Positions 5,114 to 62,178 of a stretch of DNA of 64,000 nt are shown piece after piece. The notes beneath the pieces are model-generated. The model was given only the letters and a program-made list of their open reading frames with translations, did not search any database and was not told the DNA's origin. This stretch comes from a virus (Duplodnaviria; Heunggongvirae; Uroviricota; Caudoviricetes): positions 1 to 64,000 of the IMG/VR virus record IMGVR_UViG_3300003973_000001, one strand, 5' to 3'. Position 1 is the stretch's first letter, and the number at the start of each line of letters is the position of its first letter. Position numbers and translations under genes: made by a program.

Positions 5114-5281
5114 ATGAGTAGCAAAAAGAGAGTACTCAATCCAGTAGAAATTAAAAAAGATGTAGATTACATTCCACTAGGAAGAGCATTCGATTTCTGG
5201 AACAACGAGGGAGACGATATTTATGACGAAGTCTATGGGGAAGACAGTGAATCAGGGCGAGGTATGGATAGCAAACGTTAA
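5114..5281 (+). CDS. small acidic ORF (55 aa), antitoxin candidate
   Basis: TAAGGAGG RBS at 5098-5105, ATG at 5114. Overlaps the MazF-like gene in another frame. Acidic C-terminus (DDIYDEVYGEDSESG). Confidence 0.3.
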   Translation: MSSKKRVLNPVEIKKDVDYIPLGRAFDFWNNEGDDIYDEVYGEDSESGRGMDSKR

Positions 5282-5567
5282 GTTCGTCCAAGATAATCAA
5301 ACCAAAGTCAGACCAGTCTTAGCAATAAGCTTAGAAATCGATGGGGATGACGATGTTGTCGTCCTCCCTGTCACTTCTCAGAATCCAAGAAATGACTACG
5401 ATGTAGAAGTTTCGGATTACAAAGGGACTGGATTGTTAAAACAACCATCGTACATAAGAACATCAAAGCCATTAACAATCGAAAAGAGAGAGCTTAAAAG
5501 AAAAATAGGCGAAATCAAAGATGTTGACCTAGCGAACGCATTGGAAAAGTTTCGTTCATTATTTTAA
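5223..5567 (+). CDS. MazF/PemK-like (CcdB/MazF fold) toxin endoribonuclease
   Basis: GEVWIANVKF...TKVRPVLAIS...VVVLPVTSQ...YIRTSKPLTIEKREL matches the MazF/PemK pattern (GDI-WxxxF...KxRPxLVxS...xxPxTS). Start is ATG 5223 or ATG 5235. Confidence 0.6.
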   Translation: MTKSMGKTVNQGEVWIANVKFVQDNQTKVRPVLAISLEIDGDDDVVVLPVTSQNPRNDYDVEVSDYKGTGLLKQPSYIRTSKPLTIEKRELKRKIGEIKDVDLANALEKFRSLF

Positions 5568-5573
5568 GCAGAA

Positions 5574-5612
5574 AAGATGGAAGATTCATAGTCTTTCATC
5601 TTTTTATTTTTC
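5574..5612 (+). terminator. rho-independent terminator after the MazF-like gene
   Basis: GATGGAAGA-ttcata-GTCTTTCATC stem followed by TTTTTATTTTT. Confidence 0.55.
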
Positions 5613-5616
5613 TCTG

Positions 5617-5728
5617 ATATCTCAAAAGACAAGTATTCTCTACTCTATGAGATATGATACCAATTTCATAATTATACTTAATATCTCATAAATATAAGTA
5701 ATCTTAACTTTCTGAGATGTCTTACAAC
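5617..5728. repeat. four operator-like half-site repeats (TGAGATAT / ATATCTCA) in alternating orientation
   Basis: gatatctca (5621), tgagatatg (5649), atatctcat (5685), tgagatgtc (5716). Confidence 0.4.
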
Positions 5729-5794
5729 CTCAAAAAATGACTACCTATAATAAAGCTTATGTAAACTAACTAAAAGTAAGTAGGTAAATAAAGC

Positions 5795-5831
5795 AAAACC
5801 CTCCTGCATGAACAGGAAGGCTGTTTTAGGA
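5795..5831 (-). terminator. rho-independent terminator for the small minus-strand gene
   Basis: CCTTCCTG-ttcatg-CAGGAGGG then TTTTGCTTTATTT on the minus strand. Confidence 0.5.
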
Positions 5832-5950
5832 TTCTGTATATTTTGTTGTATATTTGTTATGTAGATTTTACATAGCTATATGCTACCAGAGCGTCCTCTG
5901 GTGTATCGATACTCCCCTATTGTACTAAATGAGAGAGCGAATATCAATAT

Positions 5951-6112
5951 CTAATTTTTAGTTGCTTTCTTAGCAATATTATTAAATTTCTTAACTTCCT
6001 CAATATTCAAATCTTTTAGTTCTACATCTCTAACAGAACCATCCGTATATATCCCTACAGGTATAAGATGACCGTTCTCGTCTTTTCTTGCTCCAATAGT
6101 TACTCTAATCAT
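5951..6112 (-). CDS. small hypothetical protein (53 aa)
   Basis: Strong AGGAGAGG RBS, ATG at 6110-6112. Own rho-independent terminator at 5795-5831. Divergent from the XRE gene. Confidence 0.45.
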   Translation of the reverse strand: MIRVTIGARKDENGHLIPVGIYTDGSVRDVELKDLNIEEVKKFNNIAKKATKN

Positions 6113-6241
6113 TTATACTTCACCTCTCCTCATTTTATATAATAGCAAAAAATAGCCTCGCTCACTAACTTAACTTTTCTTGACCAATCGGTTAAGTTTT
6201 GTTAAGATAGCCTTACTATAATTTTACAAAGGAGAATCTAC

Positions 6242-6595
6242 ATGTCCGATATTGCTCATGTCACCGCAAAAAGAGTTAAAATGTTAAGATTAAAGAAAGG
6301 ATTGACTCAAAAGAGTCTTGGGGAATTGGTTGGGGTATCTGAAGCATTTATATCCATGATAGAATCTAGGTCATCTACTAACAAGAGACCATCTGGGAAA
6401 ACTATATCTCTTATAGCAGAAGCCTTAAACGTATCAACTGATTACTTATTAGGATTATCTAATACAGAAGATTTATTACCTTACTCTGATACAAGAAGAG
6501 AATTTGAAGCAATCATTGAAAAGGTCGAGCAGTTAGATGAGGATAAGCGTGTGATGGTCATAAAGATGATTCAATCTATGGTCAAAACATTATAA
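6242..6595 (+). CDS. XRE-family helix-turn-helix transcriptional regulator (CI/Cro-like)
   Basis: HTH block LTQKSLGELVGVSEAFISMIE. Sigma-A-like promoter upstream (TTGACC-17-TAAGAT and a TATAAT at 6216). Confidence 0.8.
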   Translation: MSDIAHVTAKRVKMLRLKKGLTQKSLGELVGVSEAFISMIESRSSTNKRPSGKTISLIAEALNVSTDYLLGLSNTEDLLPYSDTRREFEAIIEKVEQLDEDKRVMVIKMIQSMVKTL

Positions 6596-6651
6596 TTGCT
6601 GTTAGCGCATAATATTACGATACAATGGCTACACTTCTATTGGAGGTGTAT

Positions 6652-6889
6652 CATGTTATTTAAGAAGAGTAAGTCCCAGAAGGAAAAGGAGTTTAAGGCA
6701 ATTGAGGATATGTTAGTTAGCTCCAAGATAAAGTACGATGCGTATACTCTCGATTTGGTTAATGTCAAACATGATGAGACAAAGGAATTACTATCCAGAG
6801 AAATCGTTCATCTAAGAGAACTAATCGACACTCTGAAAATTACATATGTGGAATATGAGAAGAAGCATTTAAAGCGCAGAGAGAAATAG
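6652..6889 (+). CDS. hypothetical coiled-coil protein
   Basis: GGAGGTG RBS then ATG 6652. The track ORF from 6596 looks over-extended. Confidence 0.45.
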
Positions 6890-6926
6890 CATGGTATAAT
6901 ATGTATGAGTCGCGTCATTTTTCATT

Positions 6927-6958
6927 GCCTTGGCTAACCCCCAAGGTTTCTTTTTAAT
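6927..6958 (+). terminator. rho-independent terminator
   Basis: CCTTGG-ctaaccc-CCAAGG followed by TTTCTTTTTAATT. Confidence 0.55.
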
Positions 6959-7021
6959 TATCCCAATATTCTGAATAATATTGAAAAATAAGGCTATTTC
7001 ACTTTCGCTTCATTCTCCTAC

Positions 7022-7040
7022 TATATAATAGGAAGAAACA
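7022..7040 (+). promoter_or_regulatory. TATATAATAGGAAGAAAC promoter-like element (copy 1, upstream of rap)
   Basis: Perfect TATAAT plus conserved downstream AGGAAGAAAC. Same 18-mer at 10261 and (one base shorter) at 55133. Confidence 0.45.
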
Positions 7041-7071
7041 TGACATATATATATGGATGAAGGAGGATACT

Positions 7072-8166
7072 ATGAACGTCCCAGTCAAAGGAAACGAAAA
7101 GATTACGCAGTTATTAAACGAATGGTACATTGAAATTCGTGCCAGACGAATTGGTCAAGCTCATAGATTGAAAGAAGAGATTGATAAAAAGATTGATAGT
7201 ATAGAAAAAGACCAAACTCTACTATTGTATTACTCTCTCTTAGACTTTCGATACCAGTACATTTTAGACAATCTAGGAGTCTCTGTTAACAGCTTTGATA
7301 AGGTTGAAGAGTTTGAGATTCCAACGAACAACTTTTTAACTTATTACTACCACTTTTTTAAGGCTATTCATGCTTCTGGTATTGGTAACTACATGATAGC
7401 AAAAGAACACTTTGACAAAGCTGAATCTCTTCTTGAATTAGTTCCAGATGAGATTGAAAAAGCTGAGTTCTACTACAAATTAGGCGCTTTCCACTATGAC
7501 ATCTACGAATCACTTAACTCAGTTAAATATACTTCAAAGGCAAAGGAAATCTTTGAGCAACATGAAAATTACGAGCGAAACATAGGTTTCTGCGAGAATC
7601 TTCTTGGAACTGCTTGTACAAAGCTAAGAGAATGGGCTTTGTCAGAAGAGCATCTTATTAAGGCTATGGATATTTTCAGTAAGCATGGAGAAGAAAAATA
7701 TGTTCTAATGGTTAGACATAACTTAGGATATATGTATTCTAGTCAGAACTTATCTCCACTAGCAATTAGATATTTATCAGAGGTGACAAACCACAATCCT
7801 AGACATCACAAAGCTTTATTCTTACAAGCTAGAGAGCATTACAAATTAGATGAGCTTGATATCGCAAAAGATTTGGCTGATAGAGGATATAGTATCTGTC
7901 TTGAGTTGGGGAATATAGAGTATAAGCACCTTTTTGCAATTCTGAAATGTCTTATCTCGAATGTGTCTAGTGATGAATTGGAGAAGGTTACAATTGAAGG
8001 AATATCTTACTTTGAAGGCGAATCATTATATGAGTATATAGAAGAGAGTCAAGAGTATATGGCTGTTAAGTTCTATGAAGAAGGCAACCATACTAAATCT
8101 AGTGAATACTTCTATCTAGCTTCAAAAACGAGACAAAAAATTAAGGAAAGGGAGTCTTTAAAATGA
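7072..8166 (+). CDS. rap: Rap-family (RNPP) TPR quorum-sensing regulator/phosphatase
   Basis: About 365 aa. N-terminus ...KITQLLNEWYIEIRARRIGQAHRLKEEIDK...LLLYYSLLDFRYQYIL resembles Bacillus Rap N-termini. TPR-like repeats throughout. AAGGAGG RBS before ATG 7072. Confidence 0.8.
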   Translation: MNVPVKGNEKITQLLNEWYIEIRARRIGQAHRLKEEIDKKIDSIEKDQTLLLYYSLLDFRYQYILDNLGVSVNSFDKVEEFEIPTNNFLTYYYHFFKAIHASGIGNYMIAKEHFDKAESLLELVPDEIEKAEFYYKLGAFHYDIYESLNSVKYTSKAKEIFEQHENYERNIGFCENLLGTACTKLREWALSEEHLIKAMDIFSKHGEEKYVLMVRHNLGYMYSSQNLSPLAIRYLSEVTNHNPRHHKALFLQAREHYKLDELDIAKDLADRGYSICLELGNIEYKHLFAILKCLISNVSSDELEKVTIEGISYFEGESLYEYIEESQEYMAVKFYEEGNHTKSSEYFYLASKTRQKIKERESLK

Positions 8167-8297
8167 AAAAAGTAGCATTGGGCTTAATGGGAATTTTAAC
8201 AGCTTTAACTATGATTGTGAGCGTTCAGTCTAATAGTGATAGTAAGCCTGCATCTCCTACTATTATGATGATGGAACATGGAGACCATGGTGGTTGA
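8163..8297 (+). CDS. phr: Phr-like secreted signalling peptide precursor (44 aa)
   Basis: ATG overlaps the rap stop (ATGA). Translation MKKVALGLMGILTALTMIVSVQSNSDSKPASPTIMMMEHGDHGG has a signal peptide plus a short polar tail. Canonical rap-phr arrangement. Confidence 0.55.
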   Translation: MKKVALGLMGILTALTMIVSVQSNSDSKPASPTIMMMEHGDHGG

Positions 8298-8313
8298 TAA
8301 GAATATAAAATGA

Positions 8314-8365
8314 AATAGCCAACCCACATTATATAGAGTGGGATTGGCTATTATTTTCCTTAAAT
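8314..8365. terminator. bidirectional terminator between phr (+) and the papain-like gene (-)
   Basis: Long hairpin AATAGCCAACCCAC-(11 nt loop)-GTGGGATTGGCTATT with T-runs on both sides. The minus-gene stop codon sits in the loop. Confidence 0.55.
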
Positions 8366-8844
8366 TTCTTTACGTATTTTATAAAATCGTATAGTTGGTT
8401 TGGGGTCATATCTATTCCACGAGTTCCGCCTCTAAGAGAAAGTTCTTTTAAAGTTCCTGCCTCTTCCAATACGACAAATACTAGCTCGGAACATATGTAA
8501 TTATTAGGATTATTAAATTTATTCTTACCCTTTAGCCTTAATAACTTGCTAATCATATACCAGATAATTTGCATATAATCGTATTTTTTACCAACCATTT
8601 TCGTTCCTATATCTACTACCCTACTTCTCTCTTCTTTGTTAAGCTCTAAATCAATTACTTCTATTATATTATATTGTTCCCTATCGAATGGGACTATAGA
8701 AACTCTTGTATCAAAATCCGCCTCCAATATATGAGTATTAGACATGGCGATTGCTACGTGACTAAATGTTCCCTTATCGAAGAATCGTACAGCTTTTGAT
8801 ATAAAGCTTTTGCCTTGTAGAAATACTACGTCACCTTGTTTCAA
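8329..8844 (-). CDS. permuted papain-like (NlpC/P60 superfamily, YiiX/DUF830-like) putative peptidase
   Basis: Pattern MKxGDVVF...SxxI...SHVAIA...YICSELV is typical of permuted papain-fold amidases. Lies in the lysis neighbourhood. Confidence 0.45.
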   Translation of the reverse strand: MKQGDVVFLQGKSFISKAVRFFDKGTFSHVAIAMSNTHILEADFDTRVSIVPFDREQYNIIEVIDLELNKEERSRVVDIGTKMVGKKYDYMQIIWYMISKLLRLKGKNKFNNPNNYICSELVFVVLEEAGTLKELSLRGGTRGIDMTPNQLYDFIKYVKKFKENNSQSHSI

Positions 8845-8858
8845 AGGAATCTCCCTTT

Positions 8859-9140
8859 CTATTTGCGCTTACGATATTTTAATAGCAATGAAAATTCAAT
8901 CGAACATAAAGTTAATGCAATCGTATTTGTAATCATAAATGCCCCTGCTGTATGAAGCACAAACCACATGTAGATAGCATAAGCCTCCATAAATGCTACA
9001 CCTAAACAGATTCCGCCTAGATAGGTTACACTAAAGTCGTCTACCGATTTTGTACGAATGAATTTAATGATTTGAGGAATGTATCCGAAACTCAATATTA
9101 ATCCACCTATTAACTGTAAAGTATTAAAAAATTCTGTCAT
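8859..9140 (-). CDS. PQ-loop (SemiSWEET-like) small membrane protein, putative holin
   Basis: 93 aa with 3 predicted TM segments. GYIPQIIKFIRTK PQ-motif. Adjacent to the endolysin. Confidence 0.45.
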   Translation of the reverse strand: MTEFFNTLQLIGGLILSFGYIPQIIKFIRTKSVDDFSVTYLGGICLGVAFMEAYAIYMWFVLHTAGAFMITNTIALTLCSIEFSLLLKYRKRK

Positions 9141-9235
9141 TATTTATATATCTCCTTATCTTTTCTTCCATTTAAAAGGTTCGAACATAGCGTTAGCTAC
9201 ATCCGAACCAATAGATTAATAAAATCTAAGTTTTA

Positions 9236-10213
9236 TTACTTAACGTGTACGTATGAAGGACTTGCAGTAATGTAGAAATACTTACATCTGTACATCTTAG
9301 AACCGTTAACTGTTAATTCCTCAAGGATTGTAAATGCTTCGCCCTTCGGAACAGTTTTTTCTTTTGCATTCCAATCTGGAGCTGAGTAGACCCATAACTC
9401 TGGAGCATCTACTACAACTAATTTCCCTACATTGCTAGTTTGTCTACGTGCAAAACGAGTGTAGCTAGGGTCTCCATATATCCACTGGTCTCCACCAAGG
9501 TTTAGCCATCCATCCTTTTCTGCCCATACAACATAGTCTTCTGGAGAGTTTAAGTAGCGAATAAATTCTCCACTTGTGCTTGGAGACTTACGCAATTTAA
9601 TGTTAGTACCTTCGATATAAACGATACCTAAACCTTGCGTTCCTGCATCCCCACCGCCAGTTGGAGGAGCGATTGTGTTACCGCCACCAGAGCCATTGCT
9701 GCCTTGAACCATACTCTTGAATCCTTCGAATCCACCAGAACGATTTAAGATTGGTCGTGGGCAATATTTACCAGACCAACGTTGGTGAGGTACTACATTT
9801 CCAATGCCGATACCAGTCTGTCCCATTAAGAACTTAACTAATTTAGCACAGTTTGCTAATGCTTTCTCAAAGTTGCCATCTGAGTTTTCAGCAGTTTCGA
9901 TACCGATTGATTGGCGATTACCTGTTCCACTGCCACCATCTCCTGCATGCCAACCATTTTCATTAAGTGGTAAATGCTGAATGATACGTTTGTCATCTAC
10001 TGTAAAGTGCCAAGACACTCCTGCCGAACCGCCACCATTGTTAACAAAGTTAGAGTGAGCTAAAGCATCTGCTCCTTTGTCAGTGTTTTCAGTTGTATGA
10101 ACTGTAATGTACTTAGCTGTCATTGCATGTGCAGGACGATTACTATTACCCTTTGGAATTTCTCTAACTTCGAAAGGTACTCCACCAATGCTTGATACGT
10201 TTAAAAATGTCAT
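9236..10213 (-). CDS. endolysin: N-acetylmuramoyl-L-alanine amidase (Amidase_2/PGRP) with SH3b-like C-terminal binding domain
   Basis: Amidase_2 signature residues (H..H...E, CPRP) in the N-terminal 160 aa. C-terminal W/Y-rich SH3-like module. Confidence 0.85.
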   Translation of the reverse strand: MTFLNVSSIGGVPFEVREIPKGNSNRPAHAMTAKYITVHTTENTDKGADALAHSNFVNNGGGSAGVSWHFTVDDKRIIQHLPLNENGWHAGDGGSGTGNRQSIGIETAENSDGNFEKALANCAKLVKFLMGQTGIGIGNVVPHQRWSGKYCPRPILNRSGGFEGFKSMVQGSNGSGGGNTIAPPTGGGDAGTQGLGIVYIEGTNIKLRKSPSTSGEFIRYLNSPEDYVVWAEKDGWLNLGGDQWIYGDPSYTRFARRQTSNVGKLVVVDAPELWVYSAPDWNAKEKTVPKGEAFTILEELTVNGSKMYRCKYFYITASPSYVHVK

Positions 10214-10333: not shown

Positions 10334-10972
10334 CTATTTTGTATAAGTGATTTTTAACTGAGGCGCACCCCAATCACCATATCCATTGAAGATACCGTAG
10401 TATTCTCCGTTACCAGTATTAGCAAATATACTAACACCTTTATAATAGCCATCTCGAATCCCATAACCTAGAGCTACTGGAAGGTTAACCCATCCTGCAC
10501 TTCCGCGATTATAGAACTTCTGATAAGCTTTACCATATTCTGAATGGCTGAATGTATTTGGCTTACTGCCATGATTGTGGAATCCTGCGACTACAGTACC
10601 ACCTGCATAATAGTACCAATGCTCATTCTGTAAATACAACTCTACCTTATCGATACGCGCTCCTTGTAATTCGTTACGGATTCTTGAACCGTCATCAAAT
10701 CCAATTAGAGAACGCATGATTCCCCAAGGCTCATAAACATATCGACCTTGACAAATCTTTTCTGAGCGATAATCGGTACGTTTTGTACCTGCTTCACGAT
10801 AAGTTTGAGTAAATGTACAACCCCACGTTTTTGTATATGTTTGAGAGGTCATATTAGACCATCCAGAGCCATTCCATTTATACACTTTAGCATCTTGCCA
10901 ACTAGAGCCATTCCATGCCTTCACGCTTGCATCGTACCATTCAGAACCGCTCCATCTTTTGATATTACTCAC
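10334..10972 (-). CDS. hypothetical W/G/Y-rich protein (tail fibre or wall-binding associated)
   Basis: ORF. Repeated WNGS-type motifs. Confidence 0.5.
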   Translation of the reverse strand: MSNIKRWSGSEWYDASVKAWNGSSWQDAKVYKWNGSGWSNMTSQTYTKTWGCTFTQTYREAGTKRTDYRSEKICQGRYVYEPWGIMRSLIGFDDGSRIRNELQGARIDKVELYLQNEHWYYYAGGTVVAGFHNHGSKPNTFSHSEYGKAYQKFYNRGSAGWVNLPVALGYGIRDGYYKGVSIFANTGNGEYYGIFNGYGDWGAPQLKITYTK

Positions 10973-10987
10973 AACAACACTCCCTCT

Positions 10988-12358
10988 CTACACTTGAATC
11001 CAAATGTCTCCATAAGAAGCGCCAGATGGGGCATCCCCTCGAATATGAAGTCTTTTACCTTGTATTCTAATCTGGTTATTGAATTCCATCATGTTTTCAT
11101 TTCTGTTTGCAGTAAAGAAGTATCTGTCGTTATTCCAGTCGTACATGCCCAATTGTTTTGTATTATTGTTCATATAGAACCCCATACCCTTGTCGCCATC
11201 ATCTGCTCGGAACTTAAGGTCAGTTTCCTTATTCTTACTATTAAATTCCATTCCATACTCTGAAGTAATTACTCCATCATGTCGAACTCTCATATCTCCA
11301 TAGAATTGAGAACGCAGAACTAAAGTTCCGTTAGAATCAACGAATACACGACCAATTTCTCCATTACCGCCTTCTGCGAATACAAGGTCTCCAGAATTCA
11401 TAGAGCCTGCAGGCGCACGAAGAACGATGTCTTTACCATCTGTCATGATAAGATTCTTTTGGAAGTTAGGCTCTTCATCAACCCTAGCAAATTGATTAGC
11501 ATGAATGCCATCTAGCTTATCTGCATCTAAGCCACTTCCACTACCCATTTTCCCTGTATGCCAAACAGAATGTTCTTCTATTCCATCGTAGAACTTTAGA
11601 GTCTTTTTAGTATTAGTGTGAATGACTGTTTGAGCGCTCGTATCACCAATGATAACTGCATTGGCTACGCTGATTCTACCGATATTTATTGCTGAGCCAC
11701 CAGTATTTTTACCAGAGATTGACTGATTGTTTGCTACTGAAAGACCACCACTTAATGAACCGCCAGATAACTTAAGATAAGTATTATCGTGGTTATGATT
11801 AGTAGAATCCTTGCCCAATTGAGCGATAGCTGTCGCATTATCAGATGCTTTCTTTAGAGCTACATCTACCTCTGTTTGAACCTCATTTACTGCGCTTACA
11901 ACGCTAGTTTTATCAGAAGTTTTTAAGCTTGCTATTGAGCCGATGCTCGCATTGATAGTAGCAATTGCATCATTTGTTTTCTTACCGCCTGCGCTCCACG
12001 CACCAACTGTGTTGCCTACGATTGCTCTTTGGTGAGTATCGTTTCCTGCATGGTCGTAAAATGTTTGTAGAGCGACTGTATCTACAGCATCCACCTTCAT
12101 AAGATAAGTAGTTGTAGTCACCATACCAGACGGAGAATTTGTACAACCTTTAACTCGGTATAATCCATTCTCTTTGACTGTATTTAGGTTAACGCCTTGT
12201 AGTAGTTTACCTAGAAGGAACATTTCATTAAAATCTGATGTGATACCGCTAGTACCAACGATTTTAACCTGTTCCGCTTGTGTTTCATAATGGAGAGTAT
12301 CATAATCTGTTCCATTATGGATTTTAGCTTTAGACTTTTTAATTACCAAGTCTATCAT
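10988..12358 (-). CDS. putative tail fibre / receptor-binding protein
   Basis: 456 aa, G/S/T/N-rich beta-type sequence. Position is distal in the tail module. Confidence 0.5.
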   Translation of the reverse strand: MIDLVIKKSKAKIHNGTDYDTLHYETQAEQVKIVGTSGITSDFNEMFLLGKLLQGVNLNTVKENGLYRVKGCTNSPSGMVTTTTYLMKVDAVDTVALQTFYDHAGNDTHQRAIVGNTVGAWSAGGKKTNDAIATINASIGSIASLKTSDKTSVVSAVNEVQTEVDVALKKASDNATAIAQLGKDSTNHNHDNTYLKLSGGSLSGGLSVANNQSISGKNTGGSAINIGRISVANAVIIGDTSAQTVIHTNTKKTLKFYDGIEEHSVWHTGKMGSGSGLDADKLDGIHANQFARVDEEPNFQKNLIMTDGKDIVLRAPAGSMNSGDLVFAEGGNGEIGRVFVDSNGTLVLRSQFYGDMRVRHDGVITSEYGMEFNSKNKETDLKFRADDGDKGMGFYMNNNTKQLGMYDWNNDRYFFTANRNENMMEFNNQIRIQGKRLHIRGDAPSGASYGDIWIQV

Positions 12359-12367
12359 TCTCCTTTC

Positions 12368-12754
12368 TTATTCAATCTCTAATATTACGTTTATTGGCAT
12401 TTGCAATTCTTCATCCCATAACTGCTCTATAGAACTTACAATTCTATTTTCAACGTCATCATAGATATGGAACATATCTTGATTAATAGATGAGATTACG
12501 CCTTGAACAATCTTCTGGGCATTGTTATTTCCGATATCCTGCACGATTACAATGTCGTCAATATCAACAAATGAAACTAGATTATGAGGTATAATACATT
12601 CAGATTCACTGCCAAATACTTCAACTACACATCGTAAACCTTTTACATCTCTTACAATGCCAGTGTATGACTTTGTAAAGTTTACATTTTTAAGTCTTTC
12701 ACCTGCTAAAATCCGTACAGTTTCTAGCAGGCTATTTTGGATATCCTTCATCAC
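12368..12754 (-). CDS. hypothetical protein (paralog of the next gene)
   Basis: ORF. Shares the C..VE..G.E..C..P..L......D.V.VQD..NN..K..VQ pattern with 12751..13026. Confidence 0.5.
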   Translation of the reverse strand: MMKDIQNSLLETVRILAGERLKNVNFTKSYTGIVRDVKGLRCVVEVFGSESECIIPHNLVSFVDIDDIVIVQDIGNNNAQKIVQGVISSINQDMFHIYDDVENRIVSSIEQLWDEELQMPINVILEIE

Positions 12755-13026: not shown

Positions 13027-13040
13027 CTTACATCACCTCT

Positions 13041-54613: not shown

Positions 54614-54632
54614 CTGCAATACTTTTATTTAA
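54614..54632 (-). promoter_or_regulatory. 19-bp motif class A variant
   Basis: ctgcaatacttttatttaa, 20 nt before the start of 53823..54593. Confidence 0.55.
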
Positions 54633-54649
54633 TGAAGTGTGTGAAAGTC

Positions 54650-54740
54650 GAAAGCGCCACTGCGCGCGACCACCCACTTATCTCTCTCTTCTTAATATGG
54701 TTCTTTTCTGCTTAAATGGTTCTCTTTTATTAGACCCCCA
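54650..54740. repeat. GC-rich segment (GCGCCACTGCGCGCGACCACCCAC...TTAGACCCCCA) duplicated at 54948-55016
   Basis: About 80-bp imperfect direct repeat preceding each iteron array. GC-rich, unlike the flanking AT-rich DNA. Confidence 0.5.
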
Positions 54741-54862
54741 GATTTACACCAATAGGGGGTGTGTATTTCCGTATACCTGTCGGAGATTTACACCCCCTAT
54801 TGGTGTAAAAATCCGTATACCCTCGGAGATATACACTAGCAGGGGGTGTAAATCTCCGTATA
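54741..54862. repeat. iteron array 1: at least 3 copies of a ~22-bp unit TATACGGAGATTTACACCCCCT (some as inverted pairs)
   Basis: Direct and inverted copies of GGTGTAAATCTCCGTAT / TACACCCCCTATTGGTGTA. Confidence 0.6.
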
Positions 54863-54903
54863 CTTTAACTCATGGATAAATTTTAACAGAGAATAAGAAA
54901 TAC

Positions 54904-54922
54904 TGCAATACTTTTGTTTAAA
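54904..54922 (-). promoter_or_regulatory. 19-bp motif class A heading the first iteron unit
   Basis: ctgcaatacttttgtttaa. Confidence 0.55.
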
Positions 54923-55016
54923 GGAATACGTTTCAGTAGTGGGAAAAGAGCGCCACCGCGCGACCCCACTACTATCTCTCTCTGCTTCGTCTGGTTCTCT
55001 TATTATTAGACCCCCA

Positions 55017-55094
55017 CATTTACACCCCCTAGTGGTGTAAATCTCCGTATGGTATGCGGAAATACGCACCCCTAGAGGGTGTAAATCTCCGTAT
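55017..55094. repeat. iteron array 2: 2-3 copies of the same unit
   Basis: atttacaccccctagtggtgtaaatctccgtat ... agagggtgtaaatctccgtat. Confidence 0.6.
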
Positions 55095-55132
55095 CAGTGA
55101 GATGTATAGAAATTTGGGTGAGTGATTTTTGC

Positions 55133-55165: not shown

Positions 55166-55410
55166 GAACCAGAAATTTATTGTCAGATTGAAGGGGATTC
55201 TGCTACAATGAATACAACAAACAAATCTTGAAAAAGCAAAAACGCCCTATCCTTTGTAAGTTTGGCGACCTGCAAGGATAAAGCGTTCGAAAGATAAAAC
55301 ATAGAATTCAGTTTTTTGTTACCTCAATAATATCATACATATAATATGTATGCAAAGGAATTCTATGATTTTTTCTTCCTGCTTTTTCTATAAAAATGGG
55401 GGAATTGAAT

Positions 55411-56445
55411 ATGGCTAGACCAGATGGTTATGATGTAGAAGGTTACATCCACTTTATTAAGAAGAGAGTAGATGGGACTCATTGGGTTGGCAAAGGAGAG
55501 AGTGCTAGAGAGATGCCTAATAAAGAAGCGTATGAAGTGCCTTTTGAATCTATCGAAAACTTAGACCTTAATAGGATTGGTAATGAGATTTCTTATCTTA
55601 ATAGCAATGTCTGGAATGTAGAAAGATATATGGCTTATTTCTGGAAGCAAATAATGGATGCTGATTCTATTTTCGTTTGGAAGCATCTGTGGGAATATGC
55701 AAATGAAGCAGAGAATATTGATATGTGTTATCCGAAAATGTCTGAATTGATGCAGAGATGCGGATTATCGAGACCCACCCTAATTGACAAGATAAAGAAA
55801 CTGGAAGAGAACAACTTCCTTATTCAAATACATAGATTAAACAAGAAGTCCGATAATAAAAAAGAAGACAGCCCATTATTCAAATTAAGAAGAACTATAC
55901 CTCTGCTGTCGAAAGAACAGGTTGAAAAGCTTACTCCTTTTATGAAGAAAAAGCATGACGATTACATGAATAAGTTTGCTAGTAAATCTAGTCTAGAATG
56001 GTTCTCTGCGAGCGGTAAAGAAACTGTTGATAATCTTATAGAGACTTCTGGAGACAGAATCGTATCTAGCAAGGCAAGACAGGAAATCAAGAATCTGCTA
56101 AAGAACGAGGAAGAAGAAGGTTATATAATTGTGAACCTCCCTCCTCATATGCAGGACACATTAAAAGATTCTAATTCACTACATGAGGCTCTTATGAAGA
56201 ACGGATTTAGTAAACCGTCAGTAGAATTGCTATTTGGAGACGTAATGTCTACATATGATAGTGAGACATCTACTGCACATATTATTACCAGAAAAAGTTC
56301 TCAGAAAGAGTATTATGAGAAAAATATGGAAGATAAGTATAAAGACATGCTATTCTCATCACTAATTGAAATGTACGATTCTGTTGGAGATATAAAGTAC
56401 TTCACTACAGAACAATATATAATTACAATTCTGAAGGGCAAATAA
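55411..56445 (+). CDS. winged-helix DNA-binding protein flanked by repeat arrays (replication initiator / origin-binding candidate)
   Basis: HTH-like segment PKMSELMQRCGLSRPTLIDKIKKLEENNFL. Iterons upstream, DnaA-box/palindrome array downstream. Start moved to ATG 55411 (GGGGGA RBS). Confidence 0.55.
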   Translation: MARPDGYDVEGYIHFIKKRVDGTHWVGKGESAREMPNKEAYEVPFESIENLDLNRIGNEISYLNSNVWNVERYMAYFWKQIMDADSIFVWKHLWEYANEAENIDMCYPKMSELMQRCGLSRPTLIDKIKKLEENNFLIQIHRLNKKSDNKKEDSPLFKLRRTIPLLSKEQVEKLTPFMKKKHDDYMNKFASKSSLEWFSASGKETVDNLIETSGDRIVSSKARQEIKNLLKNEEEEGYIIVNLPPHMQDTLKDSNSLHEALMKNGFSKPSVELLFGDVMSTYDSETSTAHIITRKSSQKEYYEKNMEDKYKDMLFSSLIEMYDSVGDIKYFTTEQYIITILKGK

Positions 56446-56493
56446 GCCCTTCTTTTTTTTATCTATTTTCGTTCACATTTTAGACACATTTGG

Positions 56494-56720
56494 TTATCCG
56501 CCTAGTGTAAAGAAATTTTATACTATGATTTTCGCCTAGTATAAAGAAATTTTATACTATACCATAAAGAAATTTTATACTATAGTGTAAAGAAATTTTA
56601 CACTATAGAAACACTCACTTATCCCCAGATTCTGTGGATAACCTAGTATAAAGTTTTTTTATACTATAAAACCCTAGTGTAAAATTTCTTTATAGTCCCC
56701 CTAAAGAATCTTTACACCCT
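56494..56720. repeat. array of at least 6 palindromic 24-bp repeats (TAGTRTAAAGAAATTTTATACTAT) flanked by three DnaA-box-like 9-mers
   Basis: TTATCCGCC at 56494, TTATCCCCA at 56619, perfect TTATCCACA (complement) at 56634-56642. Each repeat is itself an inverted repeat TAGTATAAA/TTTATACTA. Confidence 0.6.
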
Positions 56721-56979
56721 ATATCTTTATGATTCTATATATCTTTTTATTATTAATTAATATAAGATTCCATAAGAATCATTAGTGTAGAATTTTCAGA
56801 AAATACAAGTCTCCAGAAATACGAATCTCGAATCGGTAGACATATAGACCCTCCAGAATACTCCTCTCACCTCCATACTGACTCACTGACACGTTCTACG
56901 AACGAAGTAATCCAAATATATCTGTAAAAATAGCCCCTCCCCTACGGAGCGCTACCTATCTTAAAATTTATTATTTTTA

Positions 56980-56998: not shown

Positions 56999-57053
56999 AG
57001 ATATAGGGTTATGGTGTAGTATGAAAACAACAACAAAACACAGGAGGTTCTAT

Positions 57054-57818
57054 ATGGACAAATTACAAGTATTCAACAATGACGAACTCGGACAGGTTCG
57101 AACGGTTACTATCGGAGAGGAAGCTTGGTTCGTAGCGAAAGATGTTTGCGATGTCTTATCAATCGGCAATATTACAAAAACGATTTCGCGACTGGATGAA
57201 GATGAGTTTACTACTAGTAAAGTCACCGATTCTACAGGAAGAAACCAAGATACATTCGTTGTAAACGAAAGTGGTCTTTACTCTATTATTATGACTAGTC
57301 GTAAACCGCAGGCAAAAGTATTTAAGAAGTGGGTTACATCAGAAGTGTTGCCGATGATTCGCAAAACTGGCGGTTACGTAAATAACGATGAGATATTCGT
57401 TAATACATATCTGGCTCATGCGGATGAAATGACAAAGACATTATTTAAATCAACATTAGAAACGGTGCGTAAGCAAAACGAAAAGATTGCTGTACTAGAA
57501 CCGAAAGCCGAATATCACGACAATGTACTTGATAGCAAAAACTCATTTACAATCACAGAGATTGCTAATGACTTGGGAATGACAGCTCGTAAATTGAACT
57601 CCCTACTACACCAATTAGGAGTGCAGAGAAAAGTTGGGGCAACATGGGTGTTGTACGCGGAACATCAGAATAAAGGCTACATCGATACAAAGACTTATGT
57701 ATATGATGGCGGTAACGAAGGATTCCAAACAGCCATGCATACACGATGGACTCAGAAAGGTCGCAAGTTCATTATTGATTTAATGACTGAGATGGGTCTT
57801 CAAAAAACATTTTACTAA
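57054..57818 (+). CDS. antirepressor (Bro-N N-terminal domain + KilA-C/ANT C-terminal domain)
   Basis: Bro-N-like LQVFNNDELGQVRTV...WFVAKDVCDVL...ESGLYSIIM...KVFKKWVTSEVLP. C-terminal TITEIANDLGMTARKLNSLL. AGGAGG RBS before ATG 57054. Confidence 0.75.
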   Translation: MDKLQVFNNDELGQVRTVTIGEEAWFVAKDVCDVLSIGNITKTISRLDEDEFTTSKVTDSTGRNQDTFVVNESGLYSIIMTSRKPQAKVFKKWVTSEVLPMIRKTGGYVNNDEIFVNTYLAHADEMTKTLFKSTLETVRKQNEKIAVLEPKAEYHDNVLDSKNSFTITEIANDLGMTARKLNSLLHQLGVQRKVGATWVLYAEHQNKGYIDTKTYVYDGGNEGFQTAMHTRWTQKGRKFIIDLMTEMGLQKTFY

Positions 57819-57885: not shown

Positions 57886-59850
57886 ATGAAATTAACAACA
57901 GAACAACAATTGGCAGTAGATACTATTGACGGAAACGTTTGTACAATCGCGAGTGCAGGCTCTGGAAAAACTAGCGCCTTCACTACTCGTATTGCGAACA
58001 TGGTAAACAATCACTATATCAATCCTACATGTATTCTAGGAATCACGTTTACGAAGAAGGCATCCGAGGAAATGCAGAAGCGACTTGCCAAGCTTATTGG
58101 TAAGGAAACAGCAAAGAAGGTCGTGCTTAGTACATTCCACAGCATCGCTTACCGATTACTAAAGGTTTTAGATTCAGAGTTTGATAAATTACAAATTGCC
58201 CCAGATTGGTGGAAGATGTCGCGCCTTAACGACTTGTGTAAGCCTCGCGATGAGCGAAACCATTTAGGTATGAATCTAGGAATCAAGGCAGGCGAACTTG
58301 CCCAGTTTATTTCTTACCAGAAAGCGAATATGGTGAAGCCGACTGACAATCTCATTATCAATGAGCAAGTCGAATTTGTAGACGGAGTGTCAGAACCACT
58401 TCTCAGAGAGGCATACGCCACGTATGAGCGACTTAAAACAGAATCTAGACAAGTAGACTTCGATGACATGTTATTGCGATTCTACGAGAAACTGAGAGAC
58501 GACAGCGTATTCCGTTCTCGCATTGCTAAACAGTATCAGTACATCATGATAGACGAATACCAAGATACTTCAACTATCGTGCTTGAAATTGTTAAGCTTA
58601 TCAACTCTCGAAACGTATTCGTAGTTGGCGATTTCCGCCAATCCATCTATGCATTCATCAATGCGAATGTTGAGAATATCCTTAACTTCAAAGATGAATT
58701 TGAGAATGTTAAGCTAATTGAATTGAACAAAAATTTCCGCTCAACGCAGAATATTGTTCACCTATCAAACAAAATTATTGAAAACAGTTCGATTGAAAAA
58801 TACAAGCAATTCAAGCCATCCGAGAGTGTTGGCGAAGTTGGAGATAAAGTTAAGTTTTCTCTATACCAAGACGAAGGAAAACAGATTCTTGGAATCGCTA
58901 ATCAGATTCAAGATTTAGTAGATGGCGGTATGCCATATAAGGAGATTGCTATTCTAGTTCGCGCAAATGCGGATACAGCAATCATTGAGGAAGTACTGGC
59001 AGATAAGGATATTCCTTACGATGTATCCAAATCCCTATCCTTCTTCGACAGAAAGGAAATCTTAGATTTACTAAGCTACGGAAGACTTGTAGTAGATAGC
59101 GAAGACGACAGCAGTTTCCGCAGAATCATCAATTCACCGAATCGATATTTAGGAAAGCAGTTTGTCGAGGAACTGGAGCGATTTGCAGGTTCGCACGATA
59201 TGAACTTAATGCAGGCGCTACGCGTAACTCCTCAGAATGGTGAGTGGAAATTCAAGCGAGGAATCGATAACTTCACTAAGATTATTAGCGATTTGCACTA
59301 TCAATCTAATTCTAGTACGAATGCAGGGCGATTCCTTCGCAATGTAATTAAAGCGACTCGCTACATTGAGTTTGTGAATGAGACGACTCCTAACGCATCT
59401 TCTATTGATGAGAAATTGGAATCTATCGAAAAGCTTTGCACTATGGCTTCTAAATTCCCTAATATCAAAGCGTTCTTGGCTCACGTTTCTACCATTAAAG
59501 ACAAACAAGCGAAGTCTAAAGGTAAAGATGCGGTGCAGGTAATGACTAGCCATGCATCTAAAGGATTGGAATTTGACGCGGTATTCGTTCCGAATGCTAA
59601 TGAAGGGCTTATTCCTCACAAGATGAATCCAGACGAGGAAGAAGAGCGAAGACTGTTTTACGTATCATGTTCTCGCCCTCGTAAGCACCTATATATCAGT
59701 TGGTTCTTTTACGATGCCGAAGCCATGCTTCAAAATGAGAGTATCTTCGTACAGGAATTGCTTGGAGAAGATACGATTCTAGAAATGAAGAAAGACCTCT
59801 TCCGAGGCAAATCGGAGACCCATGTGTGGTATCCTTCAAAAACTAGCTAA
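57886..59850 (+). CDS. UvrD/PcrA-like superfamily-1 DNA helicase
   Basis: Walker A AGSGKT. Motif II DEYQD. 654 aa. Confidence 0.8.
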   Translation: MKLTTEQQLAVDTIDGNVCTIASAGSGKTSAFTTRIANMVNNHYINPTCILGITFTKKASEEMQKRLAKLIGKETAKKVVLSTFHSIAYRLLKVLDSEFDKLQIAPDWWKMSRLNDLCKPRDERNHLGMNLGIKAGELAQFISYQKANMVKPTDNLIINEQVEFVDGVSEPLLREAYATYERLKTESRQVDFDDMLLRFYEKLRDDSVFRSRIAKQYQYIMIDEYQDTSTIVLEIVKLINSRNVFVVGDFRQSIYAFINANVENILNFKDEFENVKLIELNKNFRSTQNIVHLSNKIIENSSIEKYKQFKPSESVGEVGDKVKFSLYQDEGKQILGIANQIQDLVDGGMPYKEIAILVRANADTAIIEEVLADKDIPYDVSKSLSFFDRKEILDLLSYGRLVVDSEDDSSFRRIINSPNRYLGKQFVEELERFAGSHDMNLMQALRVTPQNGEWKFKRGIDNFTKIISDLHYQSNSSTNAGRFLRNVIKATRYIEFVNETTPNASSIDEKLESIEKLCTMASKFPNIKAFLAHVSTIKDKQAKSKGKDAVQVMTSHASKGLEFDAVFVPNANEGLIPHKMNPDEEEERRLFYVSCSRPRKHLYISWFFYDAEAMLQNESIFVQELLGEDTILEMKKDLFRGKSETHVWYPSKTS

Positions 59851-59866: not shown

Positions 59867-59883
59867 AAGAAAAGGAGAATCGC

Positions 59884-60130
59884 TATGAAAATTATTCCAG
59901 TGTTAGCGCCAAGCTACCAAGAGTTCAGATATTTTGTTCAAGACAATCAATTGAAGTTTCAGCAATTTGCTTATATCACAACGGAAGATAACCTTAGAGG
60001 ATATGGCGGTATCGTCATAGTTCTACCTAATTGGAAGAGAAATGATAAGTATGACGTAAACTTCAGACGTAGGCTGATTGAAATGGAAGTATTAAAACAT
60101 ATCTTTTTATCGAGACATGTAGAAATCTAG
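59884..60130 (+). CDS. hypothetical protein
   Basis: AAGGAGA RBS then ATG 59884. The track start at 59822 lies inside the upstream gene/motif. Confidence 0.5.
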
Positions 60131-60196
60131 GGAGGTGTGGGCAATTCGCCCTCCCCTGTCCTTCAATACTTTTGCTCTATAAATCTCTATTTTTTG

Positions 60197-60247
60197 GACG
60201 AAAGTATTGCGAGGCATTTTATACAATTAAACTAAACTATTGCGAGG
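60197..60247 (+). promoter_or_regulatory. two degenerate tandem motif copies (GACGAAAGTATTGCGAGG and AAACTAAACTATTGCGAGG)
   Basis: Upstream of 60257..60520. Confidence 0.35.
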
Positions 60248-60256
60248 ACTGATAGA

Positions 60257-60520
60257 ATGGAAACGACAAAAAATATAATGATGACAGCTATATTAGTAGA
60301 TGGTAGAAATGTAGTAATACGCCCATCCCCTACTAGCAATGAAGAAATGCTATGGAGATTTACGAATGGATTTGACGATGAAGAGAATGCAGGCATTGCA
60401 TTTATCTATCAATGGAACAAAGCTAAAATCATGGGCAAGGCTAAGGTATTTAAGAATACTACAACCTGCTACATTGAAATTAAAGGCAACAATATCGTAC
60501 TTAACTTGCTAGAGGACTAG
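60257..60520 (+). CDS. hypothetical protein
   Basis: ORF. Confidence 0.5.
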   Translation: METTKNIMMTAILVDGRNVVIRPSPTSNEEMLWRFTNGFDDEENAGIAFIYQWNKAKIMGKAKVFKNTTTCYIEIKGNNIVLNLLED

Positions 60521-60711
60521 AAATAGTCTTCTTTTTTATTTTGTACCACTTTTAGACCAATAATTGGTACATAGGGTGGTCAATCTATTATTTTTTCTAT
60601 ATTTTTTTCATCTATCAAACTCTTCAGTACCAAGGCTTGGCACTGAGGGTGGTCTAATTTCTGTCTTTCGGGTATTGCAAAGTAGAGAAATGCGTGATTT
60701 AATATAGACAA
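60521..60711. repeat. repeat sites upstream of the ParM-like gene: two palindromes each followed by AGGGTGGTC(A/T)AAT
   Basis: GACCAATAATTGGTACATAGGGTGGTCAATC and ACCAAGGCTTGGCACTGAGGGTGGTCTAATTTC. Confidence 0.45.
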
Positions 60712-60738
60712 ATGGTAAATGAAGGAGAGATTGGCAAA

Positions 60739-61878
60739 ATGGTCAAGAAAACTGCGTTAAAAGTTACTATGAAATACGATAGAGTTATTGGAATCGACTT
60801 AGGTAACGGTCTTGTAAAGATTAGAAGTGTTTACAAAAGCGGTGAATTATATGAACTGACTCTTCCAAGCGCATTCGGAAAACTGATTGATGTAGGGAAC
60901 AGTGTTGGGGGAGAAGAGCTAGATTTAGATACATATAGAATTAATGGCATCGATTATGTATGGGGAGAAGATATCACTAGACTTCGAGACAAGATGAAGC
61001 CTTGCTACGGTCATCAAGGAAGATATGAATCTGAAGCATATAAGATTATGGCTCAAATCGCTATGTCTAGAGTTGTAAAGGATTTAGGAATCGATGCAAC
61101 GGAAAAGGTTTTAGTAGTAACTGGAGTTCCTTCTATTGAAACTGATACAGAGTGCGAGACTGATATAGCGAATGCTTTCTATGGAGAAAGCTCTGGATTC
61201 TTCGAAACAGTAGTAAATGGACAAGAGTACAGCTACAGATTAGCTCACGTACAGGTTACAGCACAGGCTCTGGCAACTGTAATTGGAAGATATATAGATG
61301 AGGTTGGAAGAGTATTAAATTCGGATTATGAGAAGATTAAGGTAGCTGTAGTTGATATCGGTGCAGGCACAACGGATTTAGATGCTGTATTTGAGCTTCG
61401 TAGACAATCGAACTACCATAGTATCCAACGAGGATTCAGAGATGTTTATGAGGATATCAGAACGTATATTAGAAAGTATCATCCTTCTCATGTTGTTACG
61501 GACTACGATATCTTAGAAATCATCGAAGAAGTAGGGGATATGAGGAAGAGGCAGGAACTTGAAGCTTCTATTAGCAAGAAGAAGAAAGAGGATATTCGAT
61601 ATGAATACACTCCTTCAAAGAGAAGCGCACCAGTAGATTTCACTGATGTATTCCTTAATTCATTATATGAGCTTGCAATGGATATTCAGCAGGCTATACT
61701 TGATAAGTGGAAGAATACACTTGAATTTGATGAAATATTAATCGTTGGAGGAAGCGCAGAACACTTCTCTGACATGATGTTAAAGATTGTTAAGGATGCA
61801 ATTATCCCAGAGAACAATGGAGATAGTAACGTAGAGGGTTATTACAGATTGGGCGTAAGTATCGCACTGGCAGGATAA
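60739..61878 (+). CDS. ParM/StbA-like actin-fold partition ATPase
   Basis: N-terminal phosphate-1 motif VIGIDLGNGLVKI. DIGAGTTD phosphate-2 motif. GAAGGAGAG RBS then ATG 60739. Confidence 0.7.
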   Translation: MVKKTALKVTMKYDRVIGIDLGNGLVKIRSVYKSGELYELTLPSAFGKLIDVGNSVGGEELDLDTYRINGIDYVWGEDITRLRDKMKPCYGHQGRYESEAYKIMAQIAMSRVVKDLGIDATEKVLVVTGVPSIETDTECETDIANAFYGESSGFFETVVNGQEYSYRLAHVQVTAQALATVIGRYIDEVGRVLNSDYEKIKVAVVDIGAGTTDLDAVFELRRQSNYHSIQRGFRDVYEDIRTYIRKYHPSHVVTDYDILEIIEEVGDMRKRQELEASISKKKKEDIRYEYTPSKRSAPVDFTDVFLNSLYELAMDIQQAILDKWKNTLEFDEILIVGGSAEHFSDMMLKIVKDAIIPENNGDSNVEGYYRLGVSIALAG

Positions 61879-61890
61879 GGAGTGTAAAGA

Positions 61891-62178
61891 ATGTCTATAT
61901 ATAAGCTACCATTAGATGATGATGTTGATGTGGATATACAGAAGTGGATGGACAAGATACCTAGAAACAAGAAGGCTGAAGTTATACGACACGCTATAAG
62001 GCTGTATAAGAGCCAACTGAAAGAAGGGGAATTCTTCTATTATCCTACTGGAGAAGGCGTGTATAAGGTCAATAATACGCAAGAGGAAGTTATTGAAGAG
62101 GAAGAGATAGAAGAAGAGAGACCGATGGCTAATCCTGCATTCTTAGCTAGTATGCACAAGGCGAAGGGTGATAAATAA
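61891..62178 (+). CDS. ParR-like ribbon-helix-helix adaptor (putative)
   Basis: 95 aa. KKAEVIRHAIRLY RHH-like N-terminus, acidic C-terminus. Immediately downstream of the ParM-like gene. Confidence 0.45.
   Translation: MSIYKLPLDDDVDVDIQKWMDKIPRNKKAEVIRHAIRLYKSQLKEGEFFYYPTGEGVYKVNNTQEEVIEEEEIEEERPMANPAFLASMHKAKGDK

Follow-up and report, generated by a model that had tools for sequence, protein, structure and literature searches.

The 64,000-nt stretch of viral DNA analysed here (positions 1 to 64,000 of the IMG/VR record IMGVR_UViG_3300003973_000001; hereafter the window) very probably represents about half of a temperate SPbeta-type siphovirus that is carried as a circular plasmid prophage (phage-plasmid) in the Bacillus cereus group. 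An earlier note on this DNA had proposed a phage-plasmid rather than a strictly virulent phage, and the collinear circular plasmids and stand-alone contigs of relatives described below support that proposal. We infer a low copy number, and maintenance roles for the tyrosine recombinase, the toxin pair, and the ParMR-like partition cassette. The element would presumably still form infectious particles.

Extrachromosomal state of the relatives

The closest annotated relative was the complete, circular, 137,592-bp plasmid unnamed1 of Bacillus wiedmannii SR52 (pSR52, NZ_CP032366.1). It matched 51 of the 83 window open reading frames (ORFs), all of them collinear. Among these were the toxin together with the ORF preceding it, the recombinase (80% amino acid identity), the helicase (67%), ParM (61%), and its small partner. 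Three circular Bacillus velezensis plasmids of 129.7-148 kb (NZ_CP097785.1, NZ_CP097781.1, and NZ_CP069392.1) shared the terminase (77%), Rep (52.5%), and ParM (51%), and the B. velezensis plasmid studied in detail, pBvelV314_2 (129,705 bp, circular), had the layout of the window. Gene order was common to pSR52, the B. velezensis plasmids, and the window across its whole length, from the lysis genes to the ParM partner, whereas protein identities were 30-84% and there was almost no similarity to the window at the DNA level. In pSR52, the PemK toxin lay at the same place; the differences were an unrelated Rep (‘replication initiator protein A’) and the lack of the XRE/Rap-Phr island. The pSR52 and B. 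velezensis records are annotated as plasmids, and we found no paper describing them as phages.

Closer relatives were found in bacterial isolate assemblies. The 90%-identity clusters of the terminase, the capsid protein, and the toxin had members from B. cereus, B. mycoides, B. thuringiensis, and Bacillus sp. In at least 12 B. cereus-group assemblies, the carrier was a stand-alone contig of 126-129 kb (the longest being 126,155, 126,404, 126,464, 126,941, 127,625, 127,640, 127,992, 128,019, 128,034, 128,049, 128,524, and 129,129 bp), accompanied by a few fragments of 113-115 kb. Over the stretches compared, the relatives were 86-99.9% identical to the window, and their contigs indicate that the window is about half of a circle of ~127-129 kb. 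The Logan contig SRR28553319_52 (127,625 bp) starts at about window position 48,720 and ends at 48,693; since both points fall in the tRNA-Trp gene, its ends overlap. The ends of the IMG/VR contig 2529292751_000001 (126,404 bp) corresponded to about window positions 34,908 and 35,002, within the tail-fibre gene, and the 129,129-bp B. mycoides contig had been opened at different points in the two assemblies that contain it. Wherever contig ends could be checked, no flanking chromosomal sequence was present. The search for an extrachromosomal replicon, proposed in the earlier note as a check, was thus positive, with both collinear circular plasmids and stand-alone or self-closing contigs. A scan of species-representative genomes yielded a single relative, on a 120-kb B. 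gaemokensis scaffold, which is too little to judge integration.

The window itself is not a deposited phage or plasmid in the collections searched, as the megablast results were nearly empty. Both window ends matched the phage collection only at tRNA genes and at one short Bcp1 stretch in the tRNA region; matches in the plasmid collection were limited to the amidase, helicase, and ParM regions of pSR52 and to the Rap-Phr cassette.

Replication region

The Rep candidate was 52.5% identical to the syntenic B. velezensis plasmid protein. Its N-terminal domain resembled ‘helix-turn-helix’ and ‘DnaA N-terminal domain-containing’ proteins on many Bacillus and Paenibacillus plasmids; one such plasmid protein is located at base 276 of its record. 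The iterons downstream of rep (Table 1) flank the only perfect DnaA box of the window (56633-56641, minus strand) and a convergent box with one mismatch (56619-56627). AT-rich DNA follows the iterons, and the 576 bp downstream of rep have 30% G+C. The region thus shows the sequence features of an iteron-type theta origin, namely at least three phased repeats beside rep, a DnaA box, and an AT-rich stretch. DnaA-box-like 9-mers were not enriched across the window (19 found, 18.8 expected); only the pair within the iteron array, which is conserved by position, is taken to carry weight.

Comparison with relatives suggested that Rep and its iterons belong together. The relative L004 was 98.3% identical to window positions 35151-55403 and then switched abruptly at the start of rep. 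Beyond the switch (window 55403-56760 versus L004:1-1461), Rep was only 28% identical and the iterons differed, but the convergent DnaA-box pair was unchanged. Downstream of their divergent Rep alleles, L004, pBvelV314_2, and phage vB_BsuS_PJN02 all had this layout, with iterons of differing sequence. As the iterons change with the Rep allele across four elements, Rep and iterons appear to move and co-vary as one cassette. There is good in silico evidence that the iterons are Rep binding sites. At the L004 junction, the entire rep-origin cassette appears to have been exchanged cleanly, which possibly alters the incompatibility group.

The same cassette of Rep, iterons, and DnaA boxes was also carried by the ~142-166 kb siphoviruses PJN02 (NC_071050.1), FADO, 2S-4, and PK-3, with Rep 44-45% identical to that of the window; PJN02 also encodes an Xer-type recombinase. 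Elements with the same Rep are filed as 162-166 kb ‘plasmids’ of B. amyloliquefaciens and B. subtilis (NZ_CP076118.1 and NZ_CP106792.1), and the PJN02/FADO lineage may also consist of plasmid prophages.

Upstream of rep, two direct-repeat blocks sit between rep and a divergently oriented gene for a 256-amino-acid (aa) protein. At this position, the relatives have a different palindrome, GAGACGATTATCGTCTC. The hairpin with the GTCGCCAAACT loop was common to the window, pSR52 (L003:19470-19575), and pBvelV314_2 (L012:545-650), one of which has an unrelated Rep. Its CopA-like Rfam match was weak (28.3 bits, E-value 0.008, below the gathering score of 60). As a lead from three sequences only, the hairpin could be an antisense or leader RNA controlling replication.

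Partition genes

The ParMR-like cassette named in the earlier note was found as an actin-fold ATPase gene with a conserved small gene downstream. The ATPase scored 190 bits against the ParM model of NCBIfam, far below the cut-off of 417 bits, and is not an equivalog. It matched a PHROG partition protein (E-value 1e-40), and its best solved structure was 3js6 (‘ParM protein’, E-value 5e-14). Identity was 61% to the pSR52 protein, 51% to that of B. velezensis, and 33% to the annotated ParM of small B. cereus-group plasmids. Its relatives lay on 159 plasmid records versus 11 weak phage matches, the latter from the SPO1 group. In the phage collection, it had no match at an E-value of 1e-5 in the genomes of SPbeta or phiCD211, and neither Rep nor ParM had one in SPbeta-group genomes.

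Two candidate sites, which could be a centromere or an operator, precede parM, and the pair CCAAGGCTTGG ... AGGGTGGTC was also found upstream of pSR52 parM with a spacing of ~72 nt. With its actin-like ATPase gene followed by a small partner, and with structure matches to 3js6 and, weakly, 2q2k, the cassette resembles the pSK41-type (type II) ParMR system. It differs in the low level of similarity and in having two candidate sites rather than an array.

Virion genes and relationship to SPbeta

By sequence similarity, the virion module (~10.3-47.7 kb, minus strand) is of SPbeta type. On contigs 98-99.98% identical to the window, precomputed Pfam assignments included YomU_Tube, YomV, YomW, YomX_C, YonB, YonD_N, YonG_N, and Terminase_6N. 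For the large terminase, identity to SPbeta YonF was 47%; the figure was 51% with Lysinibacillus phage LC76P1 and 43-44% with the Clostridioides difficile phiCD211 group. The late genes follow the SPbeta order (HU-like gene, terminase, head, tube, fibre, tyrosine recombinase, tape measure, lysis), and the set for virion, packaging, and lysis was complete, with intact ORFs from the terminase through the amidase. The C-terminal half of the tail fibre was 75% identical to a pSR52 ‘tail fiber domain-containing protein’.

With SPbeta (SPBc2) and phi3T, the window shares the virion families, the late-gene order, the HU-like gene, the recombinase in the yomM slot, a giant tape measure, and a size of ~130 kb. 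The likeness has limits: only five window proteins matched the SPbeta late region in tblastn, and the nucleotide similarity expected within a genus was not reached in megablast. SPbeta is a temperate phage of 134 kb that resides as an integrated prophage in B. subtilis. Because a large genome and a tRNA island are normal for the temperate SPbeta lineage, these two features do not point to virulence.

Tyrosine recombinase

The catalytic residues Arg188, His284, Arg287, His310, and Tyr320 were all present in the tyrosine recombinase and were kept in eight relatives. The protein was 78-95% identical across relatives and ranked, at 80%, among the top three in conservation when the window was compared with pSR52. 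Similarity to SPbeta YomM was confined to 27% identity over 109 aa in BLASTP, and YomM has Lys at the position of the second catalytic Arg. SPbeta integrates via the serine recombinase SprA, and yomM is not known to encode its integrase. No serine recombinase turned up among the scanned window ORFs or the precomputed Pfam hits on related contigs, and the annotations of pSR52 and of the first 100 kb of pBvelV314_2 list none either.

As part of a temperate toolkit, in which the earlier note had listed it, the recombinase is therefore weaker evidence than assumed: the gene and its catalytic residues are intact, and it occupies the yomM slot. It appears to be a core gene of the family and a candidate enzyme for multimer resolution or circularisation. 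A function as a tail-fibre invertase was considered and dropped, as no convincing inverted repeats were found in 25.0-37.2 kb.

Toxin pair and cargo genes

The PemK/MazF-family toxin was 58% identical to the annotated, syntenic PemK/MazF toxin of pSR52. The short ORF overlapping its start, a candidate antitoxin, is called as a gene on related contigs and was 55% identical to the ORF upstream of the pSR52 PemK gene.

In the island that follows, the Rap-Phr pair appears to be of plasmid origin. The cassette (7033-8296) was 84.7% identical at the nucleotide level to B. thuringiensis plasmid pd and matched ~90 other Bacillus plasmids, including those of B. thuringiensis kurstaki HD-1 and YBT-1520; no NCBIfam match was obtained for it. 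In the B. thuringiensis plasmid homologue, a Rap-family protein is annotated, followed by a small hypothetical protein. An identity of ~85%, set against the rest of the window with almost no DNA match, suggests recent exchange with resident plasmids, and the identity to B. thuringiensis plasmid cassettes suggests long co-residence and a cargo role. Such a role has been described for phage phi3T, which also carries a Rap-Phr system (PMC8027211).

Two items that had been listed as parts of a temperate toolkit are affected by this. The Rap-Phr cassette is present as cargo acquired from B. thuringiensis plasmids. The XRE gene, proposed as a repressor, is also there, and its place in an island absent from pSR52 makes it weaker evidence than had been assumed. 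The Bro-N/KilA-C gene appears from its distribution to be variable cargo as well, since pSR52 and pBvelV314_2 both lack it and have a MerR-family gene in that region. In pBvelV314_2, the slot of the cargo island holds a different tetratricopeptide-repeat (TPR) regulator (24% identical) and a Pycsar cyclase-effector pair (L011:7103-8436).

Proposed maintenance of the element

Taken together, these modules suggest how a plasmid prophage of this kind could persist. Rep would bind the 22-23-nt iterons just downstream of its gene and, with host DnaA at the embedded box pair, would open the adjacent AT-rich DNA for theta-type replication, probably assisted by the neighbouring UvrD-like helicase. The ParM-like actin and a ParR-like adaptor would separate sister copies by acting on the palindromic site pair that precedes parM. 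Cells losing the element would be killed or arrested by the PemK/MazF toxin in concert with its upstream partner, and the tyrosine recombinase may resolve multimers, circularise incoming DNA, or both, as Cre does for P1. Rap-Phr, from resident B. thuringiensis plasmids, and the Bro-N/KilA-C protein would be accessory cargo, probably modulating host development or competing prophages.

Alternative explanations

Several observations weigh against a plasmid prophage or against parts of its proposed machinery. An exact copy of the right-hand quarter of the window (~51.5-64 kb; Rep, Bro-N, helicase, and ParMR) was not found in the collections searched, and exact look-ups of ParM, the 95-aa partner, the helicase, the sigma-like gene, and two small ORFs gave no record. 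Circularity, and with it an autonomous extrachromosomal state, is therefore a finding about close relatives and not about the exact window variant. No master repressor was identified in the window. One member of the terminase cluster lies on an unexplained record of 199,350 bp. The rep-origin cassette, whose origin-like repeats the earlier note had listed among the episomal features, also occurs in records deposited as phage genomes (PJN02 and FADO); the iterons and one box pair are real, and the cassette type is not plasmid-specific, so that it is not by itself diagnostic of plasmid maintenance. An actin-like protein is encoded by the lytic phage SPO1 too. Finally, a carrier state in which phage DNA is replicated or packaged could in principle also give rise to circular or stand-alone contigs.

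For the partition system, the doubts concern the adaptor and its sites. The best solved-structure match of the 95-aa profile was 2q2k, the ribbon-helix-helix domain of pSK41 ParR, with a weak E-value of 0.028 over the motif PRxxKAxxxRxALRxY; the single sequence gave no direct match. The single-sequence model was of low confidence (predicted local distance difference test score, pLDDT, 63), with two helices at residues 10-41 and no strand. The site pair upstream of parM was not found in pBvelV314_2. We regard the ParR assignment and the centromere as weak.

Three other explanations were weighed against a functional plasmid prophage. The first is a domesticated or defective plasmid-borne prophage that has kept plasmid replication and segregation and no longer forms infectious particles. 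It would account for the lack of any phage isolate with DNA-level similarity in the phage collection, and for the fact that close copies all come from bacterial assemblies or IMG/VR contigs. The late region, however, is intact along its full length, including the 2509-aa and 2216-aa ORFs, and its genes are conserved in order across relatives at 40-84% amino acid identity, which argues for purifying selection on virion genes. Moreover, the related phiCD5763 has been reported to be inducible (PMC5786514). We consider a defective prophage improbable.

The second is a virulent or pseudolysogenic phage in a carrier state, whose replicating or packaged, circularly permuted DNA contaminated isolate sequencing and whose ‘plasmid’ genes are accessory. 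The rep-origin cassette of deposited phages and the SPO1 actin-like protein noted above fit this explanation, as do the tRNA island and the nucleotide-metabolism genes of relatives, which resemble those of large lytic phages. Nevertheless, near-identical elements occur in many independent isolates of several species, and closed genomes hold them as deposited plasmids; in elements from hosts as far apart as B. cereus and B. velezensis, a toxin module and ParMR have been retained. Exchange of Rap-Phr at 85% nucleotide identity implies long co-residence with B. thuringiensis plasmids, and the conserved DnaA boxes of the origin point to host-controlled replication. A carrier state is in our view quite unlikely.

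The third is an integrative temperate phage, inserted in the chromosome by its tyrosine recombinase or by an integrase whose gene lies beyond the window, and using Rep and ParM for lytic replication only. It has in its favour the SPbeta-like virion module and gene order (SPbeta itself is an integrated prophage), the intact catalytic residues of the recombinase, and the 199-kb record. It is very unlikely, since closed assemblies hold the relatives as separate circular replicons, at least 12 draft assemblies give contigs of 126-129 kb and not of chromosome size, contig ends meet with no chromosomal flank, the annotations of pSR52 and of the first 100 kb of pBvelV314_2 contain no serine recombinase, and the recombinase occupies the slot of yomM, which is not known to be the SPbeta integrase.

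Comparison with other plasmid prophages

A plasmid prophage remains our preferred explanation, and two groups of known elements resemble it. The C. difficile phages phiCD211/phiCDIF1296T, phiCD5763, and phiCD2955 are circular extrachromosomal siphoviruses of ~130 kb with parM. They have antirepressors, toxin-antitoxin genes, and a tyrosine recombinase, and appear as circular contigs in isolate assemblies; phiCD5763 has been reported to be inducible (PMC5786514). Likeness of the phiCD211 group to the window was compared at the terminase, which is related (43-44%), whereas the host belongs to another class and the partition genes lack close homology to the window ParM, which had no match in these phages at an E-value of 1e-5.

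The second group comprises the B. cereus sensu lato plasmid prophages vB_BtS_B83, IEBH, and pBtic235, together with the groups defined by Piligrimova et al. 2021 (PMC8026635). They have a ParM-like protein, a small adaptor, an Xer-type recombinase, and a replication initiator. Host group and maintenance logic are those of the window, and the virion lineages are others: siphoviruses of ~50-62 kb, and the 235-kb pBtic235 with a myovirus-type tail. No SPbeta-type element of ~127-137 kb is mentioned in the parts of the article consulted, and CP032366 is not among its citations. Our literature search found no paper on an SPbeta-type plasmid-prophage clade of ~127-148 kb. The paper on phage RBClin15 of B. 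tropicus deals with another lineage.

Significance

The general concept of phage-plasmids is already established; for this SPbeta-type clade, we found no earlier description. Tentatively, and with somewhat less than even confidence, we propose a largely undescribed clade of ~127-148 kb SPbeta-type plasmid prophages across the B. cereus and B. subtilis groups, in which lifestyle and incompatibility switch by module exchange. If so, one virion design would be paired either with integration, as in SPbeta, or with plasmid maintenance by Rep and ParMR. Near-identical phage-plasmids (98% over the 20 kb compared) would exchange the whole rep-iteron cassette but retain the DnaA-box pair, an exchange that would alter the incompatibility group and let related prophages co-reside.

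Phage-plasmids carry genes back and forth between the phage and plasmid pools, and are often deposited wrongly as plasmids. Here, SPbeta-type virions also circulate as ~127 kb plasmids with Rap-Phr quorum-sensing cargo, and the related GenBank ‘plasmids’ are candidates for re-annotation as prophages. Practical benefits would be modest; the cassette of rep, iterons, and DnaA boxes and the ParMR module are possible vector parts or incompatibility determinants.

Gene content of the window

The window has ~37% G+C, and its gene blocks are strand-consistent (Table 1). All the elements named in the earlier note were found, each at or near the span assigned to it. At gathering thresholds, Rfam detected only tRNAs in the window.

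Table 1. Features of the 64,000-nt window: gene blocks, followed by the single features in order of position.
Feature	Position	Strand	Evidence or remarks
Block: SPFH protein, RusA, PemK/MazF toxin, XRE regulator, Rap-Phr	1-8.3 kb	+	
Block: lysis, tail, head, and packaging genes, 13 tRNAs, HU-like and sigma-like genes	8.3-54.6 kb	-	
Block: Rep, Bro-N/KilA-C, UvrD-type helicase, actin-like ParM, small partner gene	from 55.4 kb	+	
Candidate PemI/MazE-type antitoxin, 55-aa ORF	5114-5281	+	Overlaps toxin start; position only, no Pfam family
PemK/MazF-family toxin	5223-5567	+	PF02452 PemK_toxin, E 4e-15, full length
Cargo island, 2.7 kb	5600-8300	+	53-aa ORF 5951-6112 (-), XRE, 97-aa ORF, Rap, Phr; not in pSR52
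XRE regulator	6242-6595	+	HTH_3, E 2e-13
Rap	7057-8166	+	RapH_N, E 2e-23; TPR_12
Phr pre-peptide candidate, 44 aa	8163-8297	+	Overlaps Rap stop codon; hydrophobic N-terminus, begins MKKVALGLMGILTALTMIVSV
Lysis genes: C92 peptidase, PQ-loop protein, N-acetylmuramoyl-L-alanine amidase	8329-10213	-	Pfam; amidase 84% identical to that of pSR52
Distal tail and baseplate proteins	10334-17996	-	Collinear with pSR52, 51-70% aa identity; CBM_5_12 and DUF5048 domains
Tail tape measure, 2509 aa	18061-25590	-	PhageMin_Tail, E 7e-27; matches SPbeta YomI and pSR52 tape measure
Tyrosine recombinase in SPbeta yomM slot	25613-26644	-	Phage_integrase, E 1e-21; Xer-like, below NCBIfam cut-offs
Holin	28059-28514	-	Phage_holin_4_1, E 3e-32
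Tail fibre, 2216 aa	29338-35988	-	C-terminal Peptidase_S74 chaperone domain
SPbeta-type head, connector, tail tube, and packaging genes	36336-47725	-	Includes large terminase, 45151-46902
Island of 13 tRNAs	48682-50711	-	ARAGORN and Rfam
HU-like DNA-binding protein	50922-51218	-	Bac_DNA_binding, E 3e-22; syntenic in pSR52, pBvelV314_2, and SPbeta (yonN)
Sigma-factor-like protein	51526-52584	-	PHROG sigma factor, E 1e-36; syntenic in pSR52 and pBvelV314_2
256-aa protein, family-conserved, divergent from rep	53823-54593	-	29-31% identical to syntenic pSR52 and pBvelV314_2 proteins; no family match
Two direct-repeat blocks of ~290 bp	54614-55100		Five palindromic units of 35-41 nt, core ATTTACACC...GGTGTAAAT
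Conserved hairpin, ~55 nt, upstream of rep	55237-55315	-	Invariant loop GTCGCCAAACT
Rep candidate, winged-helix domain	55396-56445	+	HTH_36; phrog_26369 ‘replication initiation protein’, E 1e-26
Origin-like region	56499-56720		6-7 iterons of 22-23 nt (TAGTGTAAAGAAATTTTATACTA, 23-nt phasing), directly downstream of rep
Bro-N/KilA-C (ANT) antirepressor-type protein	57021-57818	+	Pfam ANT, E 3e-31; Bro-N, E 2e-25
UvrD/PcrA-type helicase	57886-59850	+	UvrD-helicase and UvrD_C, E 1e-60; 67% identical to that of pSR52
Two palindrome-containing sites of 26-27 nt, candidate centromere or operator	60555-60654		73 nt apart, upstream of parM
Actin-like segregation ATPase (ParM/Alp7A-like)	60712-61878	+	ALP_N, Alp7A_like_C, MreB-like_C
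Candidate ParR-type adaptor, 95 aa	61891-62178	+	Conserved in pSR52 and pBvelV314_2

Within the tRNA island, the short-read assemblies of two relatives break at one shared point inside the tRNA-Trp gene (48682-48754). The break is likely due to a sequence repeated elsewhere in the sample, e.g. a host tRNA gene, and can make a circular element seem linear.

In a relative 95% identical to the window, the region upstream of the window contained an anti-defence gene of the Acb2/Tad1-hairpin family (L008:3600-3848), adjoining nrdEF and a thioredoxin gene.

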